This document shows positions 4,044-40,222 of a DNA stretch of 50,456 nt, piece after piece (positions within the stretch are counted from its first letter, which is position 1; every line of letters starts with the position of its first letter). The position numbers and the translations under genes are program-made. Source of the DNA: a virus (lineage: Duplodnaviria > Caudoviricetes); the IMG/VR virus record IMGVR_UViG_3300027985_000306, positions 1 to 50,456 of that record, one strand, 5' to 3'. A model generated the notes under the pieces. The model did no database searches, was not told the origin of the DNA, and worked only from the letters and a program-made list of their open reading frames with translations.

Positions 4044-5357
4044 ATGGCTACAATCGTTCCTTTTCTGGGGATGCGTGGCACCGGCGATTGGGTCACTAAT
4101 CAGCGTCCAGAAAGCTGGAGGATGCAGATTCTTCGACTCTACCCGAACGGTCAGGCACCCCTTACCGCTCTGCTCGCTATGGCAGGCTCTGAGGCAGTAG
4201 ATGATCCTAAGTTCCACTGGTGGACTAAGCATCTCCCTCTGCAGTCTGGAGCCATTACCGAGCTCTACACCGACGCAGGCTTGAGTTCTGCGTACTCCGC
4301 GGGGGCCGTAACAGGCACGACGCTCTTTGCTAAAGTTGCAGAGGCTGTCGCCAAGGAGTTCCGCGCTGGTCATACTGCAATGTTTCGCAAGGCAGCGGGT
4401 ACCGCTCTGGATGAGGTGGATTACCGATACGATGTTCGCGCTAAGGTAACTTCGTCTGTCCAGGCTGGAGCCAACAGCTACATTGCGCTTCGGTTGCTTC
4501 AGGACGCCAGCGCTACGTACGACCTCGACGAGGCTACGCACGTTATGGTAGTCGGCAACATCAACGCGGAAGGTGCGGAGATGCCGGACGTGATCACTTA
4601 CGATCCGGTTGAGTACGACAACGTTACTCAGATCTTCCGCACTCCTCTTTCCATCACGCGTACTGCTCGCAAGACTCGTCTGCGCACTGGCCCTGCTTAC
4701 CAGCAGGCCAAGGCCGAGGCTCTTGAGATGCACTCGATCGAGATGGAGAAAGCCCTCATGTGGGGCAAGAAGTACTCCGGTGTGGGTGCCAACGGCAAGC
4801 CTGAGCGTGCTACTGACGGTCTGGTGAACTTCATTCTCACCAACAATCCAGCCAACGTCGATGCTTACCATATCTCTGCGGACGTGGCAAGTTCTACGAC
4901 CTGGCTCAACGGTGGTGAAGATTGGCTGAACGCAAAGCTCGAAGTCATCTATCGCTATGGGTCGCCTGACAAGATGGCCCTTTGTGGTAGCAAAGTGTCT
5001 CTGGCACTGAGAGCTCTCGCTAAAGCTGGAGCTACCGTCAACATCACGCCGGTCACGGTTCAGTACGGAATCCGTCTGATGCAGTGGGACCACCAGTTCG
5101 GTACCCTGTACTTCAAGACGCATCCTCTGATGAACCACGATCCTCTGATGCGCCGAGATATGGTGATCTTCGAGCCGAAGAACATCAAGCAGCGGACCAT
5201 CGACGACACGATGTTCATCTCGGACCCAGAAGATCGTCGGAACCGGAATCACTCCAAGGACGCAACCGAAGAGGAGTTCCTCACCGAGATCGGCTTCGAG
5301 TACCACTACCCGGACACGATGGGTTATCTGTCTGGCTTCGGTGTAAACAAACCGTAA
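4044..5357 (+). CDS. Major capsid protein (DUF5309/SU10-like, HK97 fold)
   Basis: 437 aa with N.TQIFR...ITRT and E.EKALMWG motifs, strongly biased codon usage, followed by a hairpin. Confidence 0.85.
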   Translation: MATIVPFLGMRGTGDWVTNQRPESWRMQILRLYPNGQAPLTALLAMAGSEAVDDPKFHWWTKHLPLQSGAITELYTDAGLSSAYSAGAVTGTTLFAKVAEAVAKEFRAGHTAMFRKAAGTALDEVDYRYDVRAKVTSSVQAGANSYIALRLLQDASATYDLDEATHVMVVGNINAEGAEMPDVITYDPVEYDNVTQIFRTPLSITRTARKTRLRTGPAYQQAKAEALEMHSIEMEKALMWGKKYSGVGANGKPERATDGLVNFILTNNPANVDAYHISADVASSTTWLNGGEDWLNAKLEVIYRYGSPDKMALCGSKVSLALRALAKAGATVNITPVTVQYGIRLMQWDHQFGTLYFKTHPLMNHDPLMRRDMVIFEPKNIKQRTIDDTMFISDPEDRRNRNHSKDATEEEFLTEIGFEYHYPDTMGYLSGFGVNKP

Positions 5358-8152: not shown

Positions 8153-9973
8153 ATGGGTGGATCTGGATCAAGTGGAGAGATCAAAATTCCTGACTACATT
8201 CGAGCCGGTCACTACATGTGGCTCACAGGCTGGGATGATGAGGCAGGAGCTGCCGATGATCCTAGGCCAGCTTTGACTGGGCGCTCCATTGGAGAGATCA
8301 TGGGCTCGGGCAGTGGGCCTATAGGTATCGCTCAGAACCCGTTCATTCAGGGTTATGCTGGTGGACCTTTTGGCTCTACTGCTGTAGCTCTAACTAGTCC
8401 TGCTGCTGCATGGCAGACTATGGACGATAGAATCACTGTCCTTGGAGGTATCAACGAACAAGTAGTAGATGCAGATGCTGAGACTGATTGGACAGCTCTT
8501 CTAGCTAATGCAGTTGAGCAGGTAGATGTAGAGGGACGTATCGCAGCCATCGTACTTTCTACGCTAATTGAAACTGCTAGTGGTGCTGCTGACGATGAGC
8601 TTGCTCTAGTAAAGGCTGACCTTGTACGAGAGACTGGCATCTCGGAGACAACAGAATGGAATGCCTTCATAGCAGCTATCAAAGCTAAGGCTGATGAAGA
8701 AGGCATGTTGTCAACTATTAGTTTCGCTGGAATTGAGACAGCAGCTAGGACTAGTGCAGACGCTGTATACGACGCTGCCGTCGCTCTTGGCATTGGAGGC
8801 ACGGGTCTCAATGAGATTCCAGACTGGCAAGGTCTGGTAGACGCTGTTGTAGCGAAGTTGCAAGAGTGCGGTGTGCTAAAGAATATTGACATTGCTAGTC
8901 TCTTCCAACTTGCTCTGGTAGAGGCTAGCGACTCAATCGAAGAGGGTATCAGGAAGGCTAATGAGATCATAGATACTGAACTGCTCCAACCTGTAATCGA
9001 CGCTTACGATCAGCGCGTTTCTTATCAGAGAGCTCGACGTGTCAACGAGTTCACTGGTCTCATGGCTGATATAGGTGCTGTACAATCTAGCGCATTCCTA
9101 ATGGGCATGGCGCTCTTGCAAGCTCAGTATCAAGCAGACGTGAATGCTTTCGGAGCAAACCTGACGCTGGAAACCTACAAGCAGGCCATCCCTCTTCATA
9201 GTCAAAACCTTAGTAACTTCTTCCAACTTGGAGTTCAGTCCAGCGGTGAGAATGTTCGTAATCGGAGTCAGCTGTTCATCCAGAGTATGCAGAACATGGT
9301 GGACATGCAGATTAACAGAACTCGATTTGAGCAATCTCTGATCGCACTCTTCAGCGATATTGACAAAACCCATATTGCTGGAGACTTGCAAGCTGAAACT
9401 ACTAATAAGCAAGGACGAGATGAGTTCATTCGTTCTGGTGCTAATGGCTTTATCCAGATGTTCATTAACAAGATCCAATATGAACAGACACTAATGCGCC
9501 TGCATACACAAGTGTTTCTGGACATACTTGATCGAGAACTTCGTGCTGCTCAGACCAACAAGATCCAGCGAGAGCAGGCCCTGTCTCAAGGCATTGACCA
9601 CATGCGCCAGCTTAAGCAGTTTAATCTGCAAGCTGAGAAGGAGGTTGTGTCGATGCGTAATGAGTTGAGCAAATGGCAGCATGTTGGACTTCTTGAGAAA
9701 GAACAGCAGGACTGGGAACTTCGAGCTAAAGCTGAACTCTGGCCTTTGGAAGTTTATGCTAGAGCCGTACAGATTCTAACAACTGCTGCTACAGGTGCGG
9801 CTTTCGTGCCCCATCAACCTAGTCGAACGTCAAGTATCCTTGCGGGTGCTCTTGGTGGGGCGGGAACTGGAGCAGCTACTGGAGCAGCCATTGGAGCAGC
9901 TGGTGGACCTATAGGTGCGGGAGCCGGAGCCCTAATAGGTCTTCTACTTGGTGGTCTTGCTGGCGCTTTCTAA
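8153..9973 (+). CDS. Internal virion / DNA ejection protein
   Basis: MGGSG start, helical body, C-terminal glycine-zipper hydrophobic segment (GALGGAGTGAATGAAIG...). Confidence 0.65.
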   Translation: MGGSGSSGEIKIPDYIRAGHYMWLTGWDDEAGAADDPRPALTGRSIGEIMGSGSGPIGIAQNPFIQGYAGGPFGSTAVALTSPAAAWQTMDDRITVLGGINEQVVDADAETDWTALLANAVEQVDVEGRIAAIVLSTLIETASGAADDELALVKADLVRETGISETTEWNAFIAAIKAKADEEGMLSTISFAGIETAARTSADAVYDAAVALGIGGTGLNEIPDWQGLVDAVVAKLQECGVLKNIDIASLFQLALVEASDSIEEGIRKANEIIDTELLQPVIDAYDQRVSYQRARRVNEFTGLMADIGAVQSSAFLMGMALLQAQYQADVNAFGANLTLETYKQAIPLHSQNLSNFFQLGVQSSGENVRNRSQLFIQSMQNMVDMQINRTRFEQSLIALFSDIDKTHIAGDLQAETTNKQGRDEFIRSGANGFIQMFINKIQYEQTLMRLHTQVFLDILDRELRAAQTNKIQREQALSQGIDHMRQLKQFNLQAEKEVVSMRNELSKWQHVGLLEKEQQDWELRAKAELWPLEVYARAVQILTTAATGAAFVPHQPSRTSSILAGALGGAGTGAATGAAIGAAGGPIGAGAGALIGLLLGGLAGAF

Positions 9974-20736: not shown

Positions 20737-23211
20737 TCAGTCTCCTGTTGTGAGTTGGTGATATGCCGACTCTAGCATCTGTGCTACAGCTTGTCGTCGG
20801 CCATGAGTGATGGTATGTTTGAACTCCACGCCGTCTTTCAGATTCTTAGCATGTATGCTGAAGTCTACTGGAATCACGAAGCGTCTCCCTTTCCACTCCA
20901 GCGGAGTTTCTAAGCTAGACTTTATCAGGTCAAGCAGGAATGCTTGATCTAACCAGGGCACGCTTAGTGGAATCTGAAAGGCTATAGAGTCGTGGACTTG
21001 AGCGAGAAGTTCTACAGACTTCATCGCAGGGTCGTTATACACATAGGCTAATCCTCGTTCGTTGATGATGTCTGCGACAGTTGATTGAGGAATGAAGGCG
21101 TAGGCCTCTTTGAAGAGAGTATCACCCCACCTGTCAGTAAAGGTGTACTTTCTACCAAAGAGATTCGTGACCACCATACCTTGTCTAAGTTCCTCTTGGA
21201 CGGCTCGATGGTACTTAGCCACCCCAGGGTATGCTCGGTGGTACTGGTCATGAATCCACTTGGCGTCGCGTTCGCTAATTTCGAGGTGGAGCGCAAAGGA
21301 TTTGTAACCGAGTCCATAGTTCAATCCGTGGTTTGCACGTTTGCCCCAATAGCGATGAGTGAATCGTCCTCCACCAAGGTCGCTCTTCACGTCGTTGTTG
21401 TTCATGTCGATAATCTCCTCGACGGGGATACCGAAGATGAGACTAGCCGTCTTACTGTGGATGTCAACCCCGTTCTCGAAAGCATCAATCATCGACACGT
21501 CAGGACCAAGATAGGCAACGACTCTGTTCTCCGCTTGGCTTAGGTCCAGGTTATACGCAACATAACCTTCGTCTGGTAGCATGAACTTCTTCATTATCGG
21601 AGGCTGATTCTGAATATTAGCTCCAGTCCCGAAGATAGTTTTGCTACTAGACAGTCGACCCGTTCTCGCTCCAACAGGGTTGATGCTACTTCTAAGCCTT
21701 CCGTCGTCATCCAACTTCATGGAGAAGTAAGTACCCTCCAGTTTAGCAAGGGTTCGATGTTCAAGAACAAGCTGCGCTACCTTATCTCCCTTTCCCGATA
21801 GCCTCTTAAGCGCTTTCTCGTTCGTTGTTACCTTACCTTGATCTTTGTATGGAGGATACTTCTTCTTTGTGTAGAAGTAATCCTTCAACTGAGTTGGGCT
21901 TCTAGGATTCAATTCGTATCCGGCAGTGATGTTTATCTGCTTTTCCAATTCCGCTAGATGCAACTTTGCAGCAGAAGCCTGCTTCTTCAAGCCGTCAACA
22001 TCCATACGAATGCCCCGCTCAGTCATAAAGAGAAGCGGAGCAAGTAGCGAAGCCTGACGCTTGTAGGTCTTGTAGTTACCTTGTGTCTTTAACTCAGCTA
22101 CTTGTTTGGGGAAGGCTTCCATTAGAACAATGCTATCAAGTGCATTGTATCGCCAGAAGCGCATTTGCCAATCTGCACCTACTGACGTGAAGCCTTTGAT
22201 CTGGTCCTTAATTACGCTCTTACCCTCGTCCTTGTAATACGGGATGTCAGTATACAGACTGGTGATGAACGCAAGACCTTTTGAGAAGTCTGGATAGAGA
22301 ATAGCTTGCGCTATCATTGTATCCTGTACGTTGTTGGTTAGCACTGCATATTCACGCAATAGAAACGAAGTATCGAACATCGCATTTTGAGCGATCTTCT
22401 CTATCCTCTCATTGCCGAGTATATCTGCTATCCGTTTCCAAACCTCTCGCTCTTGTTCGATTGTGAAGTACTCCCTCCCGTCGTTAATGAAAGGGATAGA
22501 TATAACATCCTTGTCACTGTAAGCGAAGCTAATGCAAGTCACAAAACCTTTGCTAACTTCGATGTCGAAAGCTACACGTTGCGCGTTCCAGCAAGCGCTT
22601 AGGTAGTCAATACACTCCTCGAATGTTGGCTTCAGTATATACCTTCGATCATCGACAGGGAGATCGGGTGACATTGACTGTTGCTTGGCTCTACGAAGAT
22701 CAAATGCGATCAAGTGCCGCCAACTGTACTGGCGCAGCGCAGCCGCCGGATGTATGATCGGTATGACCTTTACTCCAGGCACAAGACTCGATTCCATCAC
22801 AGAACCACGCCACTTTGTTATTCCTTGCTCTCCGGTCAAGGCGTACAAAGCAGCATTGCCTACGGCGATGATTACATTAGGTCGCACTGTCTCTATCTCT
22901 GTCTTCAGCAAGTCGATGTATTGCCGAGCAGCTTTTGAGATCACGACTTTATTGCCTAGCCGTATAAAGACGTTAAGGTTGTTATTAGGTGGACGTTCTT
23001 TGATTACGTTGGTAATGTAGCAGACCTGTCGTAGGATCCCTGCTTTTACCAACAATCTGTCGAGTAGCTTCCCACTAACTCCGACAAAGGGCTGCTTCAT
23101 GCGAGCCTCAGTTTCGCCGGGTGCTTCACCGACGATCATGATCTCAGCATTTTCAGGGCCTATCGCTGGAACTATGTTGTGCGGAAGATTCTCCGTTGCT
23201 ATTGCGCTCAT
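20737..23211 (-). CDS. polA: Family A DNA polymerase with N-terminal uracil-DNA glycosylase-like domain and 3'-5' exonuclease
   Basis: UDG motifs GEAPG..E, PFVG.SG, HPAA. Exo motifs FDIE, QNAMFD, YNALD. Pol motifs TGRLSS, DLSQAENR, KRANHGLNYG, QVHDS. Confidence 0.95.
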   Translation of the reverse strand: MSAIATENLPHNIVPAIGPENAEIMIVGEAPGETEARMKQPFVGVSGKLLDRLLVKAGILRQVCYITNVIKERPPNNNLNVFIRLGNKVVISKAARQYIDLLKTEIETVRPNVIIAVGNAALYALTGEQGITKWRGSVMESSLVPGVKVIPIIHPAAALRQYSWRHLIAFDLRRAKQQSMSPDLPVDDRRYILKPTFEECIDYLSACWNAQRVAFDIEVSKGFVTCISFAYSDKDVISIPFINDGREYFTIEQEREVWKRIADILGNERIEKIAQNAMFDTSFLLREYAVLTNNVQDTMIAQAILYPDFSKGLAFITSLYTDIPYYKDEGKSVIKDQIKGFTSVGADWQMRFWRYNALDSIVLMEAFPKQVAELKTQGNYKTYKRQASLLAPLLFMTERGIRMDVDGLKKQASAAKLHLAELEKQINITAGYELNPRSPTQLKDYFYTKKKYPPYKDQGKVTTNEKALKRLSGKGDKVAQLVLEHRTLAKLEGTYFSMKLDDDGRLRSSINPVGARTGRLSSSKTIFGTGANIQNQPPIMKKFMLPDEGYVAYNLDLSQAENRVVAYLGPDVSMIDAFENGVDIHSKTASLIFGIPVEEIIDMNNNDVKSDLGGGRFTHRYWGKRANHGLNYGLGYKSFALHLEISERDAKWIHDQYHRAYPGVAKYHRAVQEELRQGMVVTNLFGRKYTFTDRWGDTLFKEAYAFIPQSTVADIINERGLAYVYNDPAMKSVELLAQVHDSIAFQIPLSVPWLDQAFLLDLIKSSLETPLEWKGRRFVIPVDFSIHAKNLKDGVEFKHTITHGRRQAVAQMLESAYHQLTTGD

Positions 23212-29262: not shown

Positions 29263-29335
29263 CAGGGCCAGGAGGGCTCGAACCTCCAACCTCCAGATTC
29301 AAAGTCTGGTGTTCTGCCAGTTGAACTATGACCCT
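29263..29335 (-). tRNA. tRNA-Gln (anticodon TTG), no encoded CCA
   Basis: Cloverleaf: acceptor AGGGTCA/TGGCCCT, D arm GTTC/GAAC, anticodon arm CCAGA-CTTTGAA-TCTGG, T arm GGAGG-TTCGAGC-CCTCC, discriminator G. Confidence 0.93.
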
Positions 29336-32501: not shown

Positions 32502-33045
32502 ATCTATACCTCGTGTTTTGTTGTGAACGGGCCATGAGAACGAGCGCCGCGTCGTAACGCTTGCGTCTGTTCATGTCCGTGAGAACTTCGTACGCTTCTC
32601 GTACGATGTGAAAGTGGTCGGTGTCTCCTCCCTTGTCGGGATGATACTGCTTGGCGAGAGCGAAGAACGCCTTCCTTATTTCTTTTTCATCTGCATCACT
32701 CTCGACACCCAAGACGGTGTAGTAGGTCGAACGGTCTATGAAATTGCCGTTCATGATGTCTTCGAGCGACACGTCGTTAGTGCGAATCTCCGGCAGCTTA
32801 CCTTCGTAATACTTCTTTGTCAGATCACAGACAGCAAGGATTGTAGCCGGATTCGTCGTGAGATGCCAGACCTTCTTGTCACCATCCCATCGTCTATCTT
32901 TGAATGGGATCTTGACTTTGAAGTCACCTAGCATGTCCGGGTTGTAAGGCATGGCGAGAATCATATCGACCTTTGATATGACTAAACTCGGCAGCTTTAC
33001 CACGGGTGGTTGGTAGCCCTTACGGTAGGCTCTGCGTGCGGCCAT
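32494..33045 (-). CDS. J-domain (DnaJ-like) protein with N-terminal extra domain
   Basis: YY.VLGV...A...EIRKAF..LAKQYHPDKGG...F....EAYEVLTD...R..YD. Confidence 0.9.
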   Translation of the reverse strand: MAARRAYRKGYQPPVVKLPSLVISKVDMILAMPYNPDMLGDFKVKIPFKDRRWDGDKKVWHLTTNPATILAVCDLTKKYYEGKLPEIRTNDVSLEDIMNGNFIDRSTYYTVLGVESDADEKEIRKAFFALAKQYHPDKGGDTDHFHIVREAYEVLTDMNRRKRYDAALVLMARSQQNTRYRYA

Positions 33046-33218
33046 AGTACCTCGTTGATTAAGCGGTTAACGGTTTCTACAGAGATGCCTAACTGCACTG
33101 CACAGTAGGCCAGGTCGTGTTCCCATAGCAGAAGGCCGTAGCAAACCATCCCGGCCTGCCACCGCCAACTACTATCCTTGAAACACCTCGTTAGGTAGAG
33201 CAGCTCAAGCGCGCTCAC
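32997..33218 (-). CDS. Hypothetical protein with possible HTH
   Basis: CAVQLGISVETVNRLI resembles an HTH. Confidence 0.45.
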   Translation of the reverse strand: MSALELLYLTRCFKDSSWRWQAGMVCYGLLLWEHDLAYCAVQLGISVETVNRLINEVLWPHAEPTVRATNHPW

Positions 33219-33715
33219 TTCAGCTTGTTGTAAAGAACGTCGAGCAACTTCTTACGCTGCTCATCATTCATACTAGCAAACTGGTCAAGAAGTGATTGCT
33301 TGGCTTTCTCTTTTTGTTCGTGCTCCTTAGCTACTTTCTTCTTCCGCCGGTCTACCACAGTCCGCACTTCTACAAAGCGGAATGTGATGAGCGGACCTTG
33401 CTTCCGTAATGGTATGAGACGACCATTTACGGAGTAAGTCTTCCAAGTTCCGGGGATGCTCTTACGCACTCTGTAGTCCGCGAACACTTCTTCGACAGTC
33501 TTAGCATCCTTGCGGTGGAGCGTGACATCCCAGAACTCAAGACTTCCTTCTTTACCGTGCTCCCACTTGATTGGGAGACTAGGCATCCCTGGTTGTTTGA
33601 CTCGCCTTTGAGTCAGGACTCCGACTAGCTTCGAGACACAAGATCTCAAATGCTCGTCGTCGCCAGCCAAAGCTAACTCCAGATGCCGAATGATGTCGGA
33701 CTGTTCTAGCTTCAT
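33215..33715 (-). CDS. Basic hypothetical protein
   Basis: 166 aa ORF preceded by three GTTAC repeats. Confidence 0.65.
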   Translation of the reverse strand: MKLEQSDIIRHLELALAGDDEHLRSCVSKLVGVLTQRRVKQPGMPSLPIKWEHGKEGSLEFWDVTLHRKDAKTVEEVFADYRVRKSIPGTWKTYSVNGRLIPLRKQGPLITFRFVEVRTVVDRRKKKVAKEHEQKEKAKQSLLDQFASMNDEQRKKLLDVLYNKLK

Positions 33716-33779
33716 AGCTTAGTTGATTTGGGCGATGGATGTGGACATGTGCGTAAGTTACGAAGTTACACGGTTACAG

Positions 33780-34025
33780 TCAAATAGACGATGCATTTTT
33801 TTGGTACGGATCGTCGAGTAGTGTAACCACTTCTACCACGTAACTCACATGCTCATGGTTGAATGGGCTAAAGTCAATCTCCAGTTGGCTGTCGCTAGTA
33901 ACGATGAAACGGGCTCCGGCTGGCGGATACCCGAGTTCTTCTTCTAGGAAGTTCTGGAGAGCAAATGGACCTTCTTCCGTCGGACTGTAGTCCGCACTGG
34001 TCCCGAGTCGTCTACGGCGTCGCAT
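33780..34025 (-). CDS. Hypothetical protein
   Basis: 81 aa ORF on the early strand. Confidence 0.45.
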   Translation of the reverse strand: MRRRRRLGTSADYSPTEEGPFALQNFLEEELGYPPAGARFIVTSDSQLEIDFSPFNHEHVSYVVEVVTLLDDPYQKNASSI

Positions 34026-34070
34026 TGTCGTGCATAGTTCGTCGCGTTGCTTGCTTTGTTTGATAATCGT

Positions 34071-34105
34071 ACAAAGAACAAAGGGTGGGATCTACCCCAC
34101 CCCTT
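34071..34105 (-). terminator. Putative terminator
   Basis: GGGGTGGG-GTAGAT-CCCACCCT followed by TTGTTCTTTGT. Confidence 0.6.
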
Positions 34106-34122
34106 GTCCATTGCCGCCTTAT

Positions 34123-34425
34123 CTACTTCTCTGCGTCGAGACGCAGTTGGAATTGCTTGGCCGCCCAGCAGCTCATGCGAAGTCGAATCTCATCCACGTA
34201 GTCAGGATGTATCTCGTTGTCCTGCGTGAAGGTGGTGAGATCCCAACAACGATAGCTACCTTCCTCCGGTTCGATACAGAGGGAGTTACTACGCTCAGGG
34301 TCGTCATATCGCGGATGGCAGTAGAGATCACACTCTACGCCTTGCGCGTTGATCCACCGGCCGAGGTAGACACAGTGTCTGCACTGATGCCAGGAGTGGA
34401 GAGGCTCTTTATCCGAGATTGTCAT
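34123..34425 (-). CDS. Hypothetical protein (H..C..C motif)
   Basis: 100 aa ORF in early operon. Confidence 0.55.
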   Translation of the reverse strand: MTISDKEPLHSWHQCRHCVYLGRWINAQGVECDLYCHPRYDDPERSNSLCIEPEEGSYRCWDLTTFTQDNEIHPDYVDEIRLRMSCWAAKQFQLRLDAEK

Positions 34426-34612
34426 TTTCGTTGCTTGGGATCAGTTGAGGATTCTCCTTGTGCAAGCGCTGAGCACTAACGATAAAGGGAGTCCGATTGA
34501 GGGCAGTGGACGCGATCACGTAGGAGCGAACGCGGCCTTTCGTGTCGCGGATAGTCTGGAGCACTTCGTACTCCCGCGTGACCTTGCGGATTGTGTGCTT
34601 AACAGTCTTCAT
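34409..34612 (-). CDS. Hypothetical protein
   Basis: Start MKTVKH at 34612. Confidence 0.5.
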   Translation of the reverse strand: MKTVKHTIRKVTREYEVLQTIRDTKGRVRSYVIASTALNRTPFIVSAQRLHKENPQLIPSNENDNLG

Positions 34613-34889
34613 TGTTCTCCTCGTTTTCGTCTCGATGGAAGGTGAGAAGCATCCCACCAGCTAAGCAGGATGCAGATGCAAGATGCATGTCGTTGCTGCA
34701 ACAGAGCAAAAGCACGCGGGTAGCAATGCTGATGCGGAGAGCAGAGATCGCCTGCTTCTCAACTGGGCAACTCGGACTCGTTGGATCAAGCAGCCTGTTG
34801 AGAGCGTCGACCATTATCTCACCTGCGGAGTCAGCATCGGGCTGGTGCTCGTTCAGGTGATTCAGGATGTGGAGAGTATGAGAGTTCAT
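34599..34889 (-). CDS. Hypothetical protein
   Basis: 96 aa ORF in early operon. Confidence 0.45.
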   Translation of the reverse strand: MNSHTLHILNHLNEHQPDADSAGEIMVDALNRLLDPTSPSCPVEKQAISALRISIATRVLLLCCSNDMHLASASCLAGGMLLTFHRDENEENNEDC

Positions 34890-34893
34890 TGTC

Positions 34894-35229
34894 CTACTGC
34901 GGTTTGTGGTTGATGATCGGCTTGTAGCGCCGTTCGAAGGTCTCGATGAAGTTCTGAGTACAAGAAGACCGATGCAATACGATCCCGCTACCGGGATGCC
35001 AAGTTACTCGGTTCCAGCCTCCAAACGTAATCGAGTCGTGGCCCACGTTCTGCACACAGAAGTCCTTCGGACATTCTGCTTCTTCGAAGATTCGGTAGAT
35101 GTCATACACAACATGTGCGACCATGTGTGTAGCTTCATCTCCGATCACATCGAGTGCGCGAGAAAGAGCCTGTTTGCCTCTGTCGTCCATAAGCTCAAGC
35201 GTTTGAGTGAGCGATGCGGCTGGCATCAT
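34894..35229 (-). CDS. Hypothetical protein (true start may be the downstream MDDRG)
   Basis: The annotated ATG lies within the CTGATGA core of hammerhead HH-B. Confidence 0.55.
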   Translation of the reverse strand: MMPAASLTQTLELMDDRGKQALSRALDVIGDEATHMVAHVVYDIYRIFEEAECPKDFCVQNVGHDSITFGGWNRVTWHPGSGIVLHRSSCTQNFIETFERRYKPIINHKPQ

Positions 35230-35287
35230 CAGAGGTTGAGAACCACCCCAACCTGACGGGCGGTTGTTGAGACCGCCCCGTTTCGCC
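35222..35287 (-). ncRNA. Type II hammerhead ribozyme (HH-B)
   Basis: GGC-GAAA-[CGGGGCGGT/ACCGCCCG]-TC^-[AGGTTGGGG/TTCTCAACCT]-CTGATGA-T-GCC. Complete catalytic core; predicted GUC cleavage between 35255 and 35254. Confidence 0.9.
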
Positions 35288-35290
35288 TTA

Positions 35291-35536
35291 TTAGCTGTTG
35301 TTGTTAGATTCCCGAACTCTGGCGAGCTGCTTGTAGAGATTGAGTTCGAGTTCCGTCAAGATTCGCTCATACGTCTCGGGCCTATGTACCTGCATTTCTG
35401 CGTCGAGAAGTATGATGATGTCTTTGAGAAACCAGATGATTTCTCGCTTCGCGCTTGAGTCATCCATCGGCTCAGTCTTGAAGATGCTCTCAGCTCGATG
35501 GGCGAGAGCAAGGATGGTGTTCTTCTTACTTAGCAT
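35291..35536 (-). CDS. Hypothetical protein
   Basis: 81 aa ORF; its stop directly precedes HH-B. Confidence 0.55.
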   Translation of the reverse strand: MLSKKNTILALAHRAESIFKTEPMDDSSAKREIIWFLKDIIILLDAEMQVHRPETYERILTELELNLYKQLARVRESNNNS

Positions 35537-35705
35537 AACGGTCCTCGTAGTTGAATTTGTCCGGGAATGCGAAAGCCAGTTGCATCGGGTGCAACTGGTG
35601 GTACTGTCGTTCTAGGTCCGTGCGTTCCTTCTTGGTTACGCCAGACCGAGCATGGTCTATCTTCCGAACCTTAGGAGGTTTCGGAGTGTACTCAGCATAC
35701 CTCAT
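35526..35705 (-). CDS. Small hypothetical protein (59 aa, not in ORF track)
   Basis: MRYAEYTPKPPKVRKIDHARSG...YEDRYAK*; ATGA overlap with the upstream gene. Confidence 0.55.
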   Translation of the reverse strand: MRYAEYTPKPPKVRKIDHARSGVTKKERTDLERQYHQLHPMQLAFAFPDKFNYEDRYAK

Positions 35706-36169
35706 CGGGGCCTCCGTCGGCTACGTGTGACACGAAGTTCCTTCGAGCCGAAGACCGCACGAAGGATTTGTTGTTCGTCTTCCTTCTCCTCCTCCGGCTC
35801 ATCACCGTCGAAGTTAGGAATCTCAGGGCGAGTGCGATGCTCCCACCACTCGGAGCCGTCGTATTCTCCGCGCTCCATCCAAGTTCCGTCCTTCAGCCAG
35901 ACGGTGCCGAAGAGTTCCTGGCCGCCGTAGCCGCCGTCGTAACGGAAGTCGAGGACTTGGAGATCCTGCCACGTCGGCTCGCGCATGGCGAGGAGATCGC
36001 GTTGGTAGGGCCACTCTTCGATGTCTCGATCCTCGACCGAGATCACGATGGCTTCGATCTGCGCCCAGACGTTGTTGGCCGGTTCGTCTTCGGGCATGTT
36101 GCTAAACTGCCTGATTGCTCCAAGCAGTTCAGTCAGGGCATGTCGCCCCTCACGTTCGCGTCTGCTCAT
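35702..36169 (-). CDS. Hypothetical phage protein (YD.GYG.QEL.G.VW..DGTW.ERGEYDGSEWW family)
   Basis: Distinctive Gly/aromatic motif that I recognise from phage early proteins of unknown function. Confidence 0.7.
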   Translation of the reverse strand: MSRREREGRHALTELLGAIRQFSNMPEDEPANNVWAQIEAIVISVEDRDIEEWPYQRDLLAMREPTWQDLQVLDFRYDGGYGGQELFGTVWLKDGTWMERGEYDGSEWWEHRTRPEIPNFDGDEPEEEKEDEQQILRAVFGSKELRVTRSRRRPR

Positions 36170-36175
36170 GTTGTC

Positions 36176-36388
36176 TTACCTCTGGTTTTTGGTTTGAAAC
36201 CTCTCTTCGAGCCGCTCCGCCCGCTCACCGCTGAGTAGGAGATACCGACACTCGAAGTTGTTTTCGTTGACTTGTTGCACCCACTTGAGTTGGTACCACT
36301 CGAAGGAGTTATCCGACGCTCTGGTCGAGCGCATGTACAACTTGCCGTGGTGCTGAATGATTTCGTGAGTCACGAAAGTTGTCATCAT
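36176..36388 (-). CDS. Hypothetical protein
   Basis: 70 aa ORF in operon. Confidence 0.55.
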   Translation of the reverse strand: MMTTFVTHEIIQHHGKLYMRSTRASDNSFEWYQLKWVQQVNENNFECRYLLLSGERAERLEERFQTKNQR

Positions 36389-36651
36389 TCGATCTCGGCT
36401 GTGTGAACGAAGAGAACATCTCGGTCGTTGCCGAAGTAGATAGTAACATCCCCACCTTCGTTGGCGAGGAGTTCAACTGCTTCAGCAAGCGAGATGTCAT
36501 GCATGGACTCCCAGGTTTCGCTAATGCGTTCCCAAGAGATGTAATTCGGCGGCAAGCCGATCTTGTCGATGCCCGCTTTGAGAGCATCATTCGGGAGACG
36601 GAAGACTCTCGCCTTACCGCTTCCTGTGTACATAGTGAATACTCGTTCCAT
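36385..36651 (-). CDS. Hypothetical protein
   Basis: 88 aa ORF with an AC-rich leader. Confidence 0.6.
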   Translation of the reverse strand: MERVFTMYTGSGKARVFRLPNDALKAGIDKIGLPPNYISWERISETWESMHDISLAEAVELLANEGGDVTIYFGNDRDVLFVHTAEIE

Positions 36652-36671
36652 TGTCGTGTTGGTTTGGTTGA

Positions 36672-36712
36672 GAAGAAAAGAACGAAGGGGACGGGGGACC
36701 GAAGTCCCCCCG
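36672..36712 (-). terminator. UUCG-capped hairpin / weak terminator
   Basis: CGGGGGGAC-TTCG-GTCCCCCG followed by a pyrimidine run (TTCGTTCTTTTCTT). Confidence 0.5.
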
Positions 36713-36720
36713 CACAGGGC

Positions 36721-36927
36721 CTAACCCCACCCTGCCAGTTTCCTAAGGGTTCTCGTCATATAGCCGAGACGCCACATTCCGCGTCTCAGGGGCACTTGCC
36801 AGACATACGGGTTTTGATACCTTTTTGACTGACGGCCCCACTTGTAAGCCGTACGGAGAAGACGAATCCTTGTGTTCCAGTCCATGATGTTGTTTGGTTT
36901 AGGAGTGAAGGTAGGTCTGATCTTCAA
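36721..36927 (-). CDS. Hypothetical basic protein
   Basis: 68 aa; AY..G.......NPY......W..GY pattern resembles ribosome-modulation-factor-like phage proteins (weak). Confidence 0.45.
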   Translation of the reverse strand: MKIRPTFTPKPNNIMDWNTRIRLLRTAYKWGRQSKRYQNPYVWQVPLRRGMWRLGYMTRTLRKLAGWG

Positions 36928-37537
36928 CCAGGTGCTCGATCAGGTCGTTGTAGTCGTACTCCGGCATGACATCGCGGAAGTGTTGCTCCGGGTCGCCGTA
37001 CATCCCGTTCCGCTTGTTATGCACTCGGGTGAGAACGACGTGCTGCGTGATCGGGTAGTAAGTGAAGTCGACGATGTAGATGGTCATGCTTTGGCTCGTC
37101 CACGCGTATGAGTCGATGAACTTAGGCTGCCTGCGCTCGTAGCGATCCTCCTCGGCTTCAAGCGCTTTCTTGAGTTCGCCCAAGTCGTTGTACATGTCCG
37201 GCTCGTCCTCAACCATGTCATGTTCGAGAGCCAGTTCCCACTCGGACTTCTCACGAGTGATGATCGCCTGGTAGACAGCAGGCTTGCGGCACCAGCGGCC
37301 ATGTTCGTTCGTGTGGTAGCCACGCATCGGGTTCTGAACCCTGCGCCGGACCGAGAAGCCGAAGTTCTTGAGGCCACTGTAGATCGAGAAAGCCTGACCC
37401 TGTGTGAGATCACTAACGACGAGTCCTTCATCCTCCGCGAGTTGCTCGGCCTTGCGATAAACTTCGCTGTGGTTCCAGCAAATCGGCGCAGGGAGATCCG
37501 CGCGTTTCATGACCTGCATGTTGTGTTTGGGATGCAT
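36899..37537 (-). CDS. Hypothetical protein
   Basis: Start placed at MHPKH (37537), downstream of hammerhead HH-A; the longer ORF-track start runs through the ribozyme. Confidence 0.6.
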   Translation of the reverse strand: MHPKHNMQVMKRADLPAPICWNHSEVYRKAEQLAEDEGLVVSDLTQGQAFSIYSGLKNFGFSVRRRVQNPMRGYHTNEHGRWCRKPAVYQAIITREKSEWELALEHDMVEDEPDMYNDLGELKKALEAEEDRYERRQPKFIDSYAWTSQSMTIYIVDFTYYPITQHVVLTRVHNKRNGMYGDPEQHFRDVMPEYDYNDLIEHLVEDQTYLHS

Positions 37538-37577
37538 GATGTTACCTCTTTCCTTAGTGCTAAAAGCGATGACTGCT

Positions 37578-37650
37578 GGCATCGTCAGACCTTGGGAACA
37601 ACCCCAAGATGACCGGAGGCGAAGCCTAAGCAACAACCTCCGGTTTCGCC
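37578..37650 (-). ncRNA. Type II hammerhead ribozyme (HH-A)
   Basis: GGC-GAAA-[CCGGAGG/CCTCCGG]-TC^-[ATCTTGGGG/TCCCAAGGT]-CTGACGA-T-GCC. Complete core; predicted GUC cleavage between 37611 and 37610. Confidence 0.9.
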
Positions 37651-37851
37651 TTATTTGCTGCTGTTCTTGTGCTCCTGGTAGATCGCCTCGATGCCGACGT
37701 TGGCGGGGTAGTCGATCTTCCTGGCCGCACCGGGAACGATGTACTCAGTCCACTGGACGTGCAGCGTCTCGAAGTCTTCGTATCTGTGGTAGAGCGTGCC
37801 GTTGATGTACAGCCGCTCGGTGTGGGCGAAGATGTTGACGTGGGCTTTCAT
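37651..37851 (-). CDS. Hypothetical protein
   Basis: 66 aa; its TAA stop abuts HH-A. Confidence 0.6.
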   Translation of the reverse strand: MKAHVNIFAHTERLYINGTLYHRYEDFETLHVQWTEYIVPGAARKIDYPANVGIEAIYQEHKNSSK

Positions 37852-37907
37852 GTTGTTTCGTTGGTTTAGACCAAAGGGTCCGTTCTTTGTAAGATAATCG
37901 AACGAAG

Positions 37908-38072
37908 TTACCTCTCGGCGTTGTTGTTTTTAAGGAGCTCCGCCCATTGCTTATACAAGCGAGGAGGGAGATTCTTGCGAGCGTGCTCATCAAGCCTCTT
38001 GTCAAGTTGCTTGATCAGAAGCGCTCGGATCCTACTCGGATCATGTGGGATGTTGTCAAGGTCGATGTTCAT
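37908..38072 (-). CDS. Small hypothetical protein (54 aa, not in ORF track)
   Basis: MNIDLDNIPHDPSRIRALLIKQLDKRLDEHARKNLPPRLYKQWAELLKNNNAER*. Confidence 0.55.
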   Translation of the reverse strand: MNIDLDNIPHDPSRIRALLIKQLDKRLDEHARKNLPPRLYKQWAELLKNNNAER

Positions 38073-38075
38073 AGC

Positions 38076-38273
38076 TTAGAGTAGTACGACAACTCGGAGC
38101 TGAGCCTTGTTGCCTTGTTCGTCACGGTCGCAGACCAGGAAATCGTCGAACGTCGCGTGACGTTCAACCATATCATTCAGAGGGGTGTCCTTCGGCACCT
38201 CCATGAACATTTCGAGATCCCCAAACTTCGCTTGGATGCCTTGGAGAATCTCAATGGCTTCACTGACTTTCAT
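38076..38273 (-). CDS. Hypothetical protein
   Basis: MKVSEAIEILQ....GDL.; first gene after the promoter at 38354-38382. Confidence 0.65.
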   Translation of the reverse strand: MKVSEAIEILQGIQAKFGDLEMFMEVPKDTPLNDMVERHATFDDFLVCDRDEQGNKAQLRVVVLL

Positions 38274-38353
38274 GACAAGAACCTCCTTGTTGTTGTGAAA
38301 CAGTTATGTAAGGGGCCTTAGCCCCGCCCCGATGTTCTATCACCGGGGAATAC

Positions 38354-38382
38354 AAGTTACGAAAAAATCAAACCAAAGTCAA
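38354..38382 (-). promoter_or_regulatory. Sigma70-type early promoter
   Basis: TTGACT-17 nt-TAACTT upstream of the small early-gene operon. Confidence 0.65.
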
Positions 38383-38429
38383 GCCTGTACGGTCGTTTTT
38401 GTCTAGGAAAAGACGCACGTTGATTACAT

Positions 38430-38676
38430 GTAACATCGTAACCTTGTAACCTTGTAACCCCACCACCCTCTCCCCCCAACGGTATCAAACGTAGACGGAC
38501 ACCTACTCTCTACCTTCCCTTCTATCTATCTTCTTTACTTAGTTATTTTTTTCTTTTTTTTTTTAAAGAGAGAGAGAAAGAAAGATAGAAAGAAAGCGCC
38601 GGTCTATGTCCGAGCCGGGACAGAGGAGAGGGGGACATGGTTACATGATTACATGGTTACACAGTTACAACGTTAC
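38430..38676. repeat. Inverted arrays of 8-nt-period GTAAC/GTTAC repeats around a pyrimidine/purine tract (candidate replication origin)
   Basis: GTAAC at 38430, 38438, 38446, 38454; (G/A)TTAC at 38640, 38648, 38656, 38664, 38672; central T-rich then AG-rich tract. Confidence 0.75.
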
Positions 38677-39081
38677 GAATCAGGGGGTCGGAAAGTGCAA
38701 CTACAACACATACCGCAGATAGAAGACAGTTGAGCTTAAATCCACATCCAATCGGGCTGTTTTCTTATTTTTCCTCTTAGCACATAGGACTACGTATATC
38801 GGTGTCTAGCCACATCGCCATACCGACCCCGGCCCCCTTCGTGTAGTTCGTCACACTGTAGCTCACGCTATTTAACTCCCCCTAACAACTACCCCTACCA
38901 GTCAACAACGTTATGGCTTGTACTACGTATATACCCCAACACCTCGTCACACTGTAGCAAGCGGAGCTTCGCCCTACTAGACCATTTTCCTTCGCGGGTG
39001 TAGTACAGCCGTTATTGTACATGGGCCGCCCCCATGCCAGCAAGAACGCAATAACGGTCTTCTACGGTCGTTTATGTACAT

Positions 39082-39120
39082 AAAAAAAGGGACAACCGCT
39101 TACGCGTGGTTGTCCCTTTC
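39082..39120 (-). terminator. Rho-independent terminator of the first early cassette
   Basis: AAAGGGACAACC...GGTTGTCCC followed by TTTTTTT. Confidence 0.85.
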
Positions 39121-39150
39121 TTGTATGGATAAGGGTTGCTTTTTCCTTAC

Positions 39151-39375
39151 TTACTTGTTCGCGTTCATGTTCGCACTTCCGTTCACTTCAACGTGAAGGA
39201 ATCCGAACATTCCCTTACGGAATTTGACCTGTACTTCAACGGGCACGTTGAACGTTTCCGATGTGTACGTGAAGGTCACGCTTTCCGCGTCTTGTGTGCC
39301 GTTCAACATCTTGTATGAGGCTTCAAGCAACAAATCCTCAACAATCCGTTCGGCTTGTTTCTTTGGGAAGAACAT
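39151..39375 (-). CDS. Hypothetical early protein
   Basis: 74 aa; shares the atypical codon usage of its upstream neighbour. Confidence 0.65.
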   Translation of the reverse strand: MFFPKKQAERIVEDLLLEASYKMLNGTQDAESVTFTYTSETFNVPVEVQVKFRKGMFGFLHVEVNGSANMNANK

Positions 39376-39380
39376 GACGT

Positions 39381-40094
39381 TTACTTGTTGTCGTTGTTGT
39401 TGTCGTTGTCGGTACCTTCGTTGTTCGCGGATTCCTTCGCTTTCTTCGCTTCGATCATTGCCTTTTCACGTGCTTCCAACAATGCGATCAAGGCGCGAAC
39501 ATCTTCCGGGGTTTCGGCTTTGGTTTCCTTCAACAACTTGTCGGTCTTTTCTTCCGTTGACAACGGATACTCCATCGGCACACCGATGTTGTTGAATCCA
39601 ACCTCAACAACGGGGATGGATTCCTTCACATCTTCCATCTTGCCGCCCAAGGCGGCTTTCCGGCGAACGGTGCGGGTGATACGCTTTCCATCGTTCAACG
39701 GCTTTCCGTCTTCACCGATCGCCCCCCATGACTTCCAGAAGCGATGAAAGGCGGCTTTCGTCTTCGGCTTGTCCCTGTTCACTCGTGCGAACGTGACAAC
39801 CTTTTTACGTGCCGCTTCCTTCAAGATCGGCTTCAATTCAACCCCGGCGAAGTTGACGTGCAACATGATGTATTCACCCGTTGTGTTGTCCCCTTCGTCT
39901 TTGTCGTATCCAACATGCGTCAACAGCTTGATAACTGCTTCCGGCACATCGGGGACAACGAACATCGGCTCCTCTTTCTTCGCTTCCGGCTTCACGTCAT
40001 TCGTTGACGTATCGGCTTCCACGGCTTCCACGGCTTCAACAACGTCCGTTGTTGCCGCTTCAACGGCTTCAACTTTCTTGGCTTGCTTTGACAT
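39381..40094 (-). CDS. Hypothetical early protein (237 aa, charged), probably first gene transcribed
   Basis: Start MSKQAKK at 40094 after an AC-rich leader; EAV repeats; GAA/CAA/TTG-biased codons. Confidence 0.75.
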   Translation of the reverse strand: MSKQAKKVEAVEAATTDVVEAVEAVEADTSTNDVKPEAKKEEPMFVVPDVPEAVIKLLTHVGYDKDEGDNTTGEYIMLHVNFAGVELKPILKEAARKKVVTFARVNRDKPKTKAAFHRFWKSWGAIGEDGKPLNDGKRITRTVRRKAALGGKMEDVKESIPVVEVGFNNIGVPMEYPLSTEEKTDKLLKETKAETPEDVRALIALLEAREKAMIEAKKAKESANNEGTDNDNNNDNK

Positions 40095-40222
40095 TGGTTC
40101 GGTGTTTGTTGCCCTTGTAAGGGCAATGTGTACGTTCCAGCGGCAAAGCAACCCTTATCCCTTCAACTTCAATCCCAACTTCCCATCGGGCGAACAAGAA
40201 ACCGTCCCTTGTCCCCCCGTCC

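Follow-up and report, generated by a model that had tools for sequence, protein, structure and literature searches.

The stretch of DNA analysed here (the window) is the whole of the IMG/VR virus record IMGVR_UViG_3300027985_000306 (50456 bases, completeness rating 100%), which, judged by its gene content, is a complete ~50-kb SU10-like podophage of environmental origin (metagenomes) and virulent type. Its leftward genes include two hammerhead ribozymes (HHR) of type II, HHR1 upstream and HHR2 downstream. A first-pass annotation of the sequence had proposed two type II cores on the minus strand, each at a stop codon or a few nucleotides from one, and had suggested an Infernal search with Rfam models; both cores passed that search with the full model. 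The cmscan of the whole window at Rfam gathering thresholds returned three matches, one tRNA and two Hammerhead_II (RF02276, gathering score 37 bits), the latter corresponding to HHR2 (39.6 bits, E 1.2e-4) and HHR1 (39.1 bits, E 1.5e-4), both over model positions 1-66 of 66. In the per-genome RF02276 search the two E values were 2.7e-8 and 3.6e-8, and none of the 14 control genomes matched. A permissive Rfam scan (E ≤ 1) of the window found no further ribozyme, including none in the gap at 36652-36898. The sequence evidence thus confirms that both elements are genuine hammerheads of type II, lying on the coding strand where genes end, with the following parts and predicted cleavage sites.

37567-37651, minus strand: HHR1, the upstream type II hammerhead (Rfam RF02276, sequence and parse agreeing)
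HHR1, 5' part, minus strand: GGC (stem II 5' strand) 37650-37648; GAAA 37647-37644; stem III 37644-37612; C17 37611
HHR1, middle part, minus strand: stem I 37610-37589 with loop GUUGUU 37602-37597; CUGACGA 37588-37582; extra U 37581
HHR1, 3' part, minus strand: GCC (stem II 3' strand) 37580-37578; pseudoknot tail AGCAGU 37577-37572; conserved CAUCGCU 37571-37565
37611/37610, minus strand: predicted cleavage site 1, C17/A1.1, in GUC/A between stems III and I, with the chemistry expected from the family
35214-35288, minus strand: HHR2, the downstream type II hammerhead (Rfam RF02276, sequence and parse agreeing)
HHR2, 5' part, minus strand: GGC 35287-35285; GAAA 35284-35281; stem III (one bulged G) 35281-35256; C17 35255
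HHR2, middle part, minus strand: stem I 35254-35233 with loop GUGGUU 35246-35241; CUGAUGA 35232-35226; extra U 35225
HHR2, 3' part, minus strand: GCC 35224-35222; pseudoknot tail AGCCGC 35221-35216; CAUCGCU 35216-35210
35255/35254, minus strand: predicted cleavage site 2, C17/A1.1, from sequence and parse

The catalytic core is intact in both copies, with CUGA(C/U)GA, GAAA (G12-A14), the A15.1-U16.1 pair closing stem III, and C17. The topology is that of type II, in which loops close stems I and III and stem II is open, here with 3 base pairs (bp; GGC/GCC). Stem I has 8 bp and a 6-nucleotide (nt) loop, and stem III has 8 bp, with a single bulge in HHR2. Both copies have one extra U between A9 and G10.1, a position at which 54 of the 83 family members described below have a 1-nt insert. 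Loop I can form a pseudoknot with the 3' tail through six pairs in each copy, G-U wobbles included (GUGGUU/AGCCGC in HHR2 and GUUGUU/AGCAGU in HHR1), as read by eye from the sequence and without a program score. A loop I/3'-tail pseudoknot of at least 4 bp has been reported to be required for fast cleavage (Perreault et al. 2011, PLoS Comput Biol, PMC3088659).

As the first-pass annotation had described, stems I and III differ between the copies yet pair in both, around shared stem II flanks. Stem III has an entirely different sequence with its pairing retained, stem I carries two double, compensatory changes, and the pseudoknot has one compensatory difference (G-C to U-A). Because pairing is maintained through compensatory change and the cores are perfect, the comparison of the two sequences indicates selection on the RNA fold, beyond DNA homology alone.

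Both ribozymes start immediately after a TAA stop. The TAA (37653-37651) that ends a 66-amino-acid (aa) open reading frame (ORF) abuts the stem II GGC of HHR1, and at HHR2 a TAA (35293-35291) is followed by a second TAA (35290-35288) and then by GGC. The two elements form a diverged direct repeat, with an identity of 80% over 45 nt and of 86% over 29 nt. The 29-nt repeat (35277-35305 and 37640-37668) extends for about 15 nt into the last codons of the upstream ORFs, which suggests that the hammerhead unit was duplicated or acquired along with its upstream flank.

The motifs, their placement and the pattern that they follow across the family are direct observations. A pattern of the shared flanks matches 38 other viral contigs, all of which match RF02276 at E ≤ 0.001, with 35 exceeding the cut-off. 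At least two matches are present in 20 of the 38 records (2-12 each, 102 in total), co-oriented within each record. For the survey, 83 hammerheads were parsed, namely the two window copies and 81 Rfam hits (E ≤ 0.001) from 19 of these 20 multi-hit records; it omits G015, which has one hit at either end of its contig, as well as hit seven of G018, and 17 of the 81 added hammerheads score under the Rfam gathering score. Upstream, an open frame of 40 or more codons ends between -60 and +25 nt of stem II in 80 of the 83 hammerheads, and between -12 and +1 in 39; the stop abuts stem II, as in HHR1, in 12. The spacing between neighbours in the arrays is 69-6446 nt (median 730), a range that includes the 2363 nt of the window, and the density is about one ribozyme per one to two ORFs. 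The native stem II is fully paired in 80/83 hammerheads and covaries, being GGC/GCC in 67 and GCC/GGC in 10 (nine with a U insert and one with a C insert); the share of GGC/GCC is inflated by the selection of the 38 records for the flanks of the window, which leaves the permutation test on the same set, given below, unaffected. By these comparisons the window pair is an ordinary, sparse case of intercistronic hammerhead punctuation. At the other end of the range, three records of ~50 kb carry 11, 12 and 12 co-oriented type II hammerheads in 8-9.4 kb (dense arrays L140-L142):

G019, C1, 42560-51528, minus strand: dense hammerhead array
G023, C1, 38841-46856, plus strand: dense hammerhead array
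G034, C1, 37921-47357, minus strand: dense hammerhead array

A metagenome pattern scan for the sub-subtype of the window (flanks plus CATCGC tail) returned a single contig, L159. This contig also has two co-oriented hammerheads, at 8309-8380 and 9583-9655 of its minus strand and 1.27 kb apart, which score 44.9 and 35.4 bits (the latter below threshold), and has no proteins in common with the window. In tblastn, 193 window ORFs gave no hit at E ≤ 1e-3 against the sampled neighbourhoods of the 38 hammerhead contigs and against L159, and the control worked. Megablast of positions 33000-40000 against GenBank phages gave no match.

Cleavage at both sites (C37611/A37610 and C35255/A35254) would excise an RNA of 2356 nt, the length that the first-pass annotation had given and on which sequence and parse agree; its excision is plausible. 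That annotation had counted about seven ORFs in the segment, of which six are plausible and the seventh is a doubtful 68-aa ORF with a TTG start. The segment and its flanking ORFs are as follows.

37651-37851, minus strand: 66-aa ORF, its TAA stop abutting HHR1; no Pfam or PHROG family
35255-37610, minus strand: segment between the cleavage sites, 2356 nt, with six plausible ORFs and a 247-nt gap with a GC hairpin
37537-36899, minus strand: 212-aa ORF
36692-36712, minus strand: GC-rich UUCG hairpin GGGGGAC-UUCG-GUCCCCC, in the gap at 36652-36898 (from the sequence)
36651-36385, minus strand: 88-aa ORF
36388-36176, minus strand: 70-aa ORF
36169-35702, minus strand: 155-aa ORF with a phrog_3972 domain
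35705-35526, minus strand: 59-aa ORF
35536-35291, minus strand: 81-aa ORF
34894-35229, minus strand: 111-aa ORF downstream of HHR2, its longest form starting at an AUG within the ribozyme core

The hairpin, which had been placed at 36672-36712 as a possible efficient terminator, is real (about 36710-36693, minus strand) and is at best a weak terminator candidate: it is absent from the output of the terminator scan, and its U-tract is interrupted and set back. The fold of the whole gap is no better than that of shuffled sequences (z -0.45). The 155-aa ORF contains a ~50-aa domain (residues 70-119, phrog_3972) that is present in 495 viral loci; by regular expression, a type II hammerhead was found within ~6 kb in 0 of the 80 loci kept from these 495. 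The 212-aa ORF that follows HHR1 has no relative in the viral or metagenome contigs searched. Downstream of HHR2, the true start of the 111-aa ORF may be the ATG at about 35190. Both window copies have an AUG in the core (A6-U7-G8 or A9-U-G10.1) that shares its frame with the ORF downstream. The possibility that translation starts within the core was considered and rejected as chance, given that of 72 hammerheads with such an AUG 36 have at least 40 open codons in its frame, versus 32 and 24 in the other two frames.

The ribozymes lie within a long leftward gene block. Every ORF from about 40.1 kb to 16.5 kb is on the minus strand, which encodes, by Pfam, a DNA polymerase A-uracil-DNA glycosylase (UDG) fusion, a ParB-methylase, a PD-(D/E)XK nuclease, an AAA_24 ATPase and a DnaJ-domain protein; the polymerase-UDG, the methylase and the nuclease are at the far end of the block. 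The polymerase and its N-terminal UDG-superfamily domain form a single 824-aa ORF (20740-23211, minus strand). The plus strand encodes the SU10-type portal (548-2584), the major capsid protein (4044-5354) and a podophage fibre protein; a 679-aa protein considered as the terminase was ruled out by its Pfam assignment, the SU10-type portal. Small ORFs fill 33-38.3 kb, and among the ten tested between 34126 and 37851 nine have no Pfam or PHROG family, the exception being the 155-aa ORF. From these small genes, mostly of no known family, the leftward block continues into the genes for replication; to call it an early operon is reasonable and would follow from this arrangement. The tRNA (29263-29335, minus strand) has the anticodon loop CUUUGAA, which reads as UUG (Gln) in the Rfam alignment.

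Upstream of the ribozyme-bearing operon is a non-coding region of about 800 nt (38300-39150) with tandem repeats spaced by 8 nt (ACATGGTT/ACATGATT at 38635-38666, plus GGTTACAAGGTTACAAGGTTACG), which flank a long, imperfect, purine/pyrimidine-rich palindrome. On both strands the palindrome matches models of plant miRNA precursors below threshold (53 bits, with a gathering threshold of 200), and the region as a whole resembles an origin of replication or a regulatory region. A promoter-like TTGACT-17-TAACTT is present at about 38383-38355 (minus strand), ahead of the operon. A canonical intrinsic terminator (39083-39122, minus strand; GGGACAACC...GGTTGTCCC followed by a T run) lies after a 74-aa ORF, and therefore the ribozyme operon is probably transcribed separately from the genes at 39151-40151.

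The reading favoured here, which we consider probable, is that the hammerheads cut an early polycistronic mRNA into linear, hairpin-capped segments without the need for a host ribonuclease (RNase). It corresponds to the fallback of the first-pass annotation, an exonuclease-protected processing akin to that at the RNase III sites of T7. A long leftward transcript would be made, and each ribozyme would fold and cut itself after C17 during transcription, in an active fold made of hairpin stems III and I, the 3-bp stem II and the loop I/3'-tail pseudoknot. The upstream piece would have the stem III hairpin at its end, terminated by a 2',3'-cyclic phosphate. The downstream piece would begin with a 5'-OH and then the stem I hairpin, after which, in both window copies, a second hairpin would probably form by pairing of the tail CAUCG back on (C)GAUG; stability and translation could then differ between the segments. 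We infer that a single transcript spans both ribozymes, that it is cleaved in vivo and that its stability is affected. Stable structures are predicted at the termini, with -19.8 and -13.7 kcal/mol at the 3' ends and -16.0 and -18.8 kcal/mol at the 5' ends. Neither 3' exonucleases nor 5'-monophosphate-dependent RNase E would act well on ends with a hairpin, a cyclic phosphate or a 5'-OH, and so the likely effect of cleavage would be differential stabilisation and the uncoupling of cistrons; where the host has enzymes of the RNase J type, cleavage may instead lead to decay.

Several points weigh against this reading. The RF02276 scores are just ~2 bits over threshold in both copies. An insert such as the extra U that follows A9 is frequent in the family, and activity with it is a prediction for these two sequences. 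The minimum free energy (MFE) folds of both ribozymes in ViennaRNA, which scores neither the hammerhead core nor the pseudoknot, pair the tail CAUCGCU with GGCGA or with G8-A9-U-G-C, and such tail-core pairing would be inactive. Between HHR1 and HHR2, some transcripts could terminate at the hairpin near 36700. The conservation in related phages that had been suggested as a check was not found: none of 19 relatives by the portal protein (≤58% identity) has a type II hammerhead matching RF02276, nor does any of the five that are at least 90% complete, and therefore the elements are dispensable in this lineage. Whether the outcome would be stabilising or destabilising depends on the RNases of the host.

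The tail bears directly on another explanation, in which cutting would mark early messages for degradation, or uncouple them, and the CAUCGCU tail would toggle the ribozyme between inactive and active folds. The conserved tail after the pseudoknot (37571-37565 and 35216-35210) can pair with the 3' strand of the core, G8-A9-(U)-G10.1-C10.2, in a helix that is incompatible with the active fold and that has 5 and 6 bp in the window copies. A tail-core helix of at least 5 bp is present in 37/83 hammerheads, compared with 11.9 ± 3.0 when the tails are shuffled, and its partners vary together (GAUGC/GCAUC, UGAGC/GCUCA, CUGACG/CGUCAG). Regulated cleavage in phages was also speculated on by Perreault et al. 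(2011). However, the helix is missing in 46/83 hammerheads, and swapping the tails among family members barely shortens it (4.11 versus 3.95). It has no known ligand or protein partner and could be either a post-cleavage lock or an off-state. The same helix could simply form once the RNA has been cut, and the direction of any stability effect would again be set by the host. We regard a decay or timing switch as unlikely. The part of Perreault et al. (2011) available to us contains no mention of the tail-core helix. An outer helix of the 5' flank with the tail was also considered and set aside, occurring in 27/83 hammerheads versus 18.0 ± 3.1 with shuffled tails and having just 3 bp in the window copies.

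A second possibility is that the hammerheads are a largely selfish or neutral repeat, a ~95-nt unit that spreads between phages and serves mainly as a short homology block for the recombination of gene cassettes, with no benefit for expression. The diverged direct repeat with its ~15 nt of upstream coding sequence would fit such a unit, as would the recurrence of the same flanks in contigs that, in the sampled regions, share no proteins with the window. Its absence from 19/19 portal relatives, the varying identities of the neighbouring genes and the 0/80 phrog_3972 loci with a hammerhead (by regular expression) point the same way. Against it, the perfect cores and the compensatory changes in stems and pseudoknot argue for selection on the RNA fold, and the gene-wise orientation and the placement just after ORF ends are near-universal (80/83). 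We consider that explanation quite unlikely.

The remaining alternative is the one that the first-pass annotation had put forward, taking the interchangeable stem II of the two ribozymes as a special feature by which the ends of the excised RNA could rebuild a chimeric hammerhead and be joined into a circle. The stem II strands of HHR1 and HHR2 are indeed identical, and the 2',3'-cyclic phosphate and 5'-OH ends known for the family would be suitable for joining. However, this stem II is the family consensus (67/83) and its flanks recur in the 38 contigs. A chimeric stem II is fully paired in 44/63 neighbouring pairs, against 43.8 ± 3.6 for random pairs and 43.4 ± 2.1 when the order is shuffled within genomes, and in 19 of the 63 one or more base pairs of the chimeric stem II are lost. 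With native pairing kept and chimeras at chance level, it follows that selection maintains the stem II of each ribozyme, with no sign of keeping neighbours compatible.

Folding of the naked 2356-nt RNA leads to the same view. In ViennaRNA, which models canonical pairs only and leaves the core and tertiary contacts outside, the chimeric stem II has a pair probability (P) of 0.0003. Nucleotides 42-52 (UCGCUUUUAGC, in the HHR1 tail) pair with nucleotides 2316-2328 (GCUAAUAAGGCGA, in the HHR2 5' flank) at P 0.8-0.98, so that the termini could share one junction; this end helix would bring them together but uses up the GGC strand of stem II and G12-A13, and therefore excludes the hammerhead and its catalytic fold. 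Among 138 random inter-genome chimeras, 30% equal the cofold free-energy difference (ddG) of this end helix, -7.7 kcal/mol, as do 8% of 200 shuffled tails, and the value lies within the spread of the 63 neighbour chimeras (median -5.6). A pair-specific end-to-end helix was thus rejected as a candidate, being present but unexceptional; neither the fold, nor the chimeras, nor the 63 pairs gave a reassembly of the ends into a competent hammerhead or a pair-specific, ligase-ready helix.

The surroundings are no more favourable to joining. Type II halves are held together by the 3-bp stem II alone, which would favour release of the products, and ribosomes on the six ORFs would hold the ends apart. 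The phage encodes no RtcB (PF01139) or RNA_ligase/Rnl2-type protein (PF09414), and none of the T4 Rnl1 type (PF09511), the last being a weak blank given that its control matched nothing anywhere. The segment also differs from a retrozyme or viroid-like unit (~150-1000 nt, non-coding, with type I or III ribozymes) in its 2356 nt, six ORFs and type II ribozymes. The sequencing runs listed as containing the region include none of RNA. Contigs of three DNA runs over the region are fragmentary and near-identical, with no joints, as expected for DNA; they cover only the 3' half of HHR2 (35214-35258, unchanged) and are uninformative on expression or circles. The annotation had known of no circular phage mRNA cassette of this kind, but the idea was already raised by Perreault et al. 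(2011), who judged it worth testing and report circular or spliced products as undetected (data not shown). A literature search, mostly of titles and abstracts, found no report of a circular phage mRNA made by hammerheads. That the 3' half of HHR2 and the 5' half of HHR1 would reassemble, with the ends of the six-gene 2356-nt RNA (35255-37610) meeting in one junction and being closed by reverse ligation or a host RtcB-type ligase into an exonuclease-proof circular mRNA, is very improbable, and circularisation is unsupported.

The window offers a clean example of hammerhead punctuation from a complete genome, with both ribozymes starting at the nucleotide that directly follows a stop codon. Well-defined pairs of this kind are handy test cases for the effects of self-cleavage on mRNA stability and translation. 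The survey is perhaps more useful than the pair, with its arrays of up to 12 hammerheads, the chance-level compatibility of neighbours and the recurrent tail helix that competes with the core. A circular mRNA would matter if true; the idea is not new, and nothing here favours circularity.

In the early transcript of T7, the host RNase III makes intercistronic cuts that leave stable, hairpin-ended segments with 5'-phosphate and 3'-OH ends. The window resembles this system in the intercistronic cuts in a polycistronic early mRNA and in the hairpin-ended segments that these would produce. It differs in that the RNA is predicted to cut itself, without the host enzyme, leaving a 5'-OH and a 2',3'-cyclic phosphate.

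Retrozyme and viroid-like circles have been demonstrated, with type III or I ribozymes in non-coding units of 150-1000 nt, a rod-like fold that juxtaposes the ends and a tRNA ligase that circularises them (de la Pena et al. 2020). There, as in the window, the unit lies between two hammerheads of the same sense in direct repeats, with the same end chemistry expected. The ribozymes of the window are instead of type II, around a 2.36-kb coding unit in a phage without a ligase. The type II hammerheads in phage-like regions of Desulfovibrio vulgaris belong to the same Rfam family and also have a phage-gene neighbourhood; they are active in vivo, both linear fragments of three of them having been captured from cells by cyPhyRNA-seq (Olzog et al. 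2021), and they differ from the window pair in being single loci at three separate genome positions. A 2019 review still termed the role of bacterial and phage hammerheads hypothetical.

The closest likeness is to the hammerheads that flank genes or gene blocks in prophages, with clusters in A. tumefaciens (the ardA triple), C. scindens and A. caulinodans, for which it was proposed that they process long phage transcripts to mRNAs of the length of an operon or a gene (Perreault et al. 2011). Three of those tandem prophage arrangements were cleaved as expected in vitro, and the A. tumefaciens triple also in E. coli; spliced or circular products were raised there as a possibility, neither being detected. 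The window shares with these clusters the type II topology, the loop I/3'-tail pseudoknot, the co-oriented copies flanking variable genes and the proposed role in processing. It differs from them in belonging to an uncultured, SU10-like metagenomic podophage, and not to a prophage of a named bacterium, and in having two copies only, 2.36 kb apart and enclosing six ORFs. The arrangement of clustered phage hammerheads was thus already described in 2011, and the window pair is a further instance of it.

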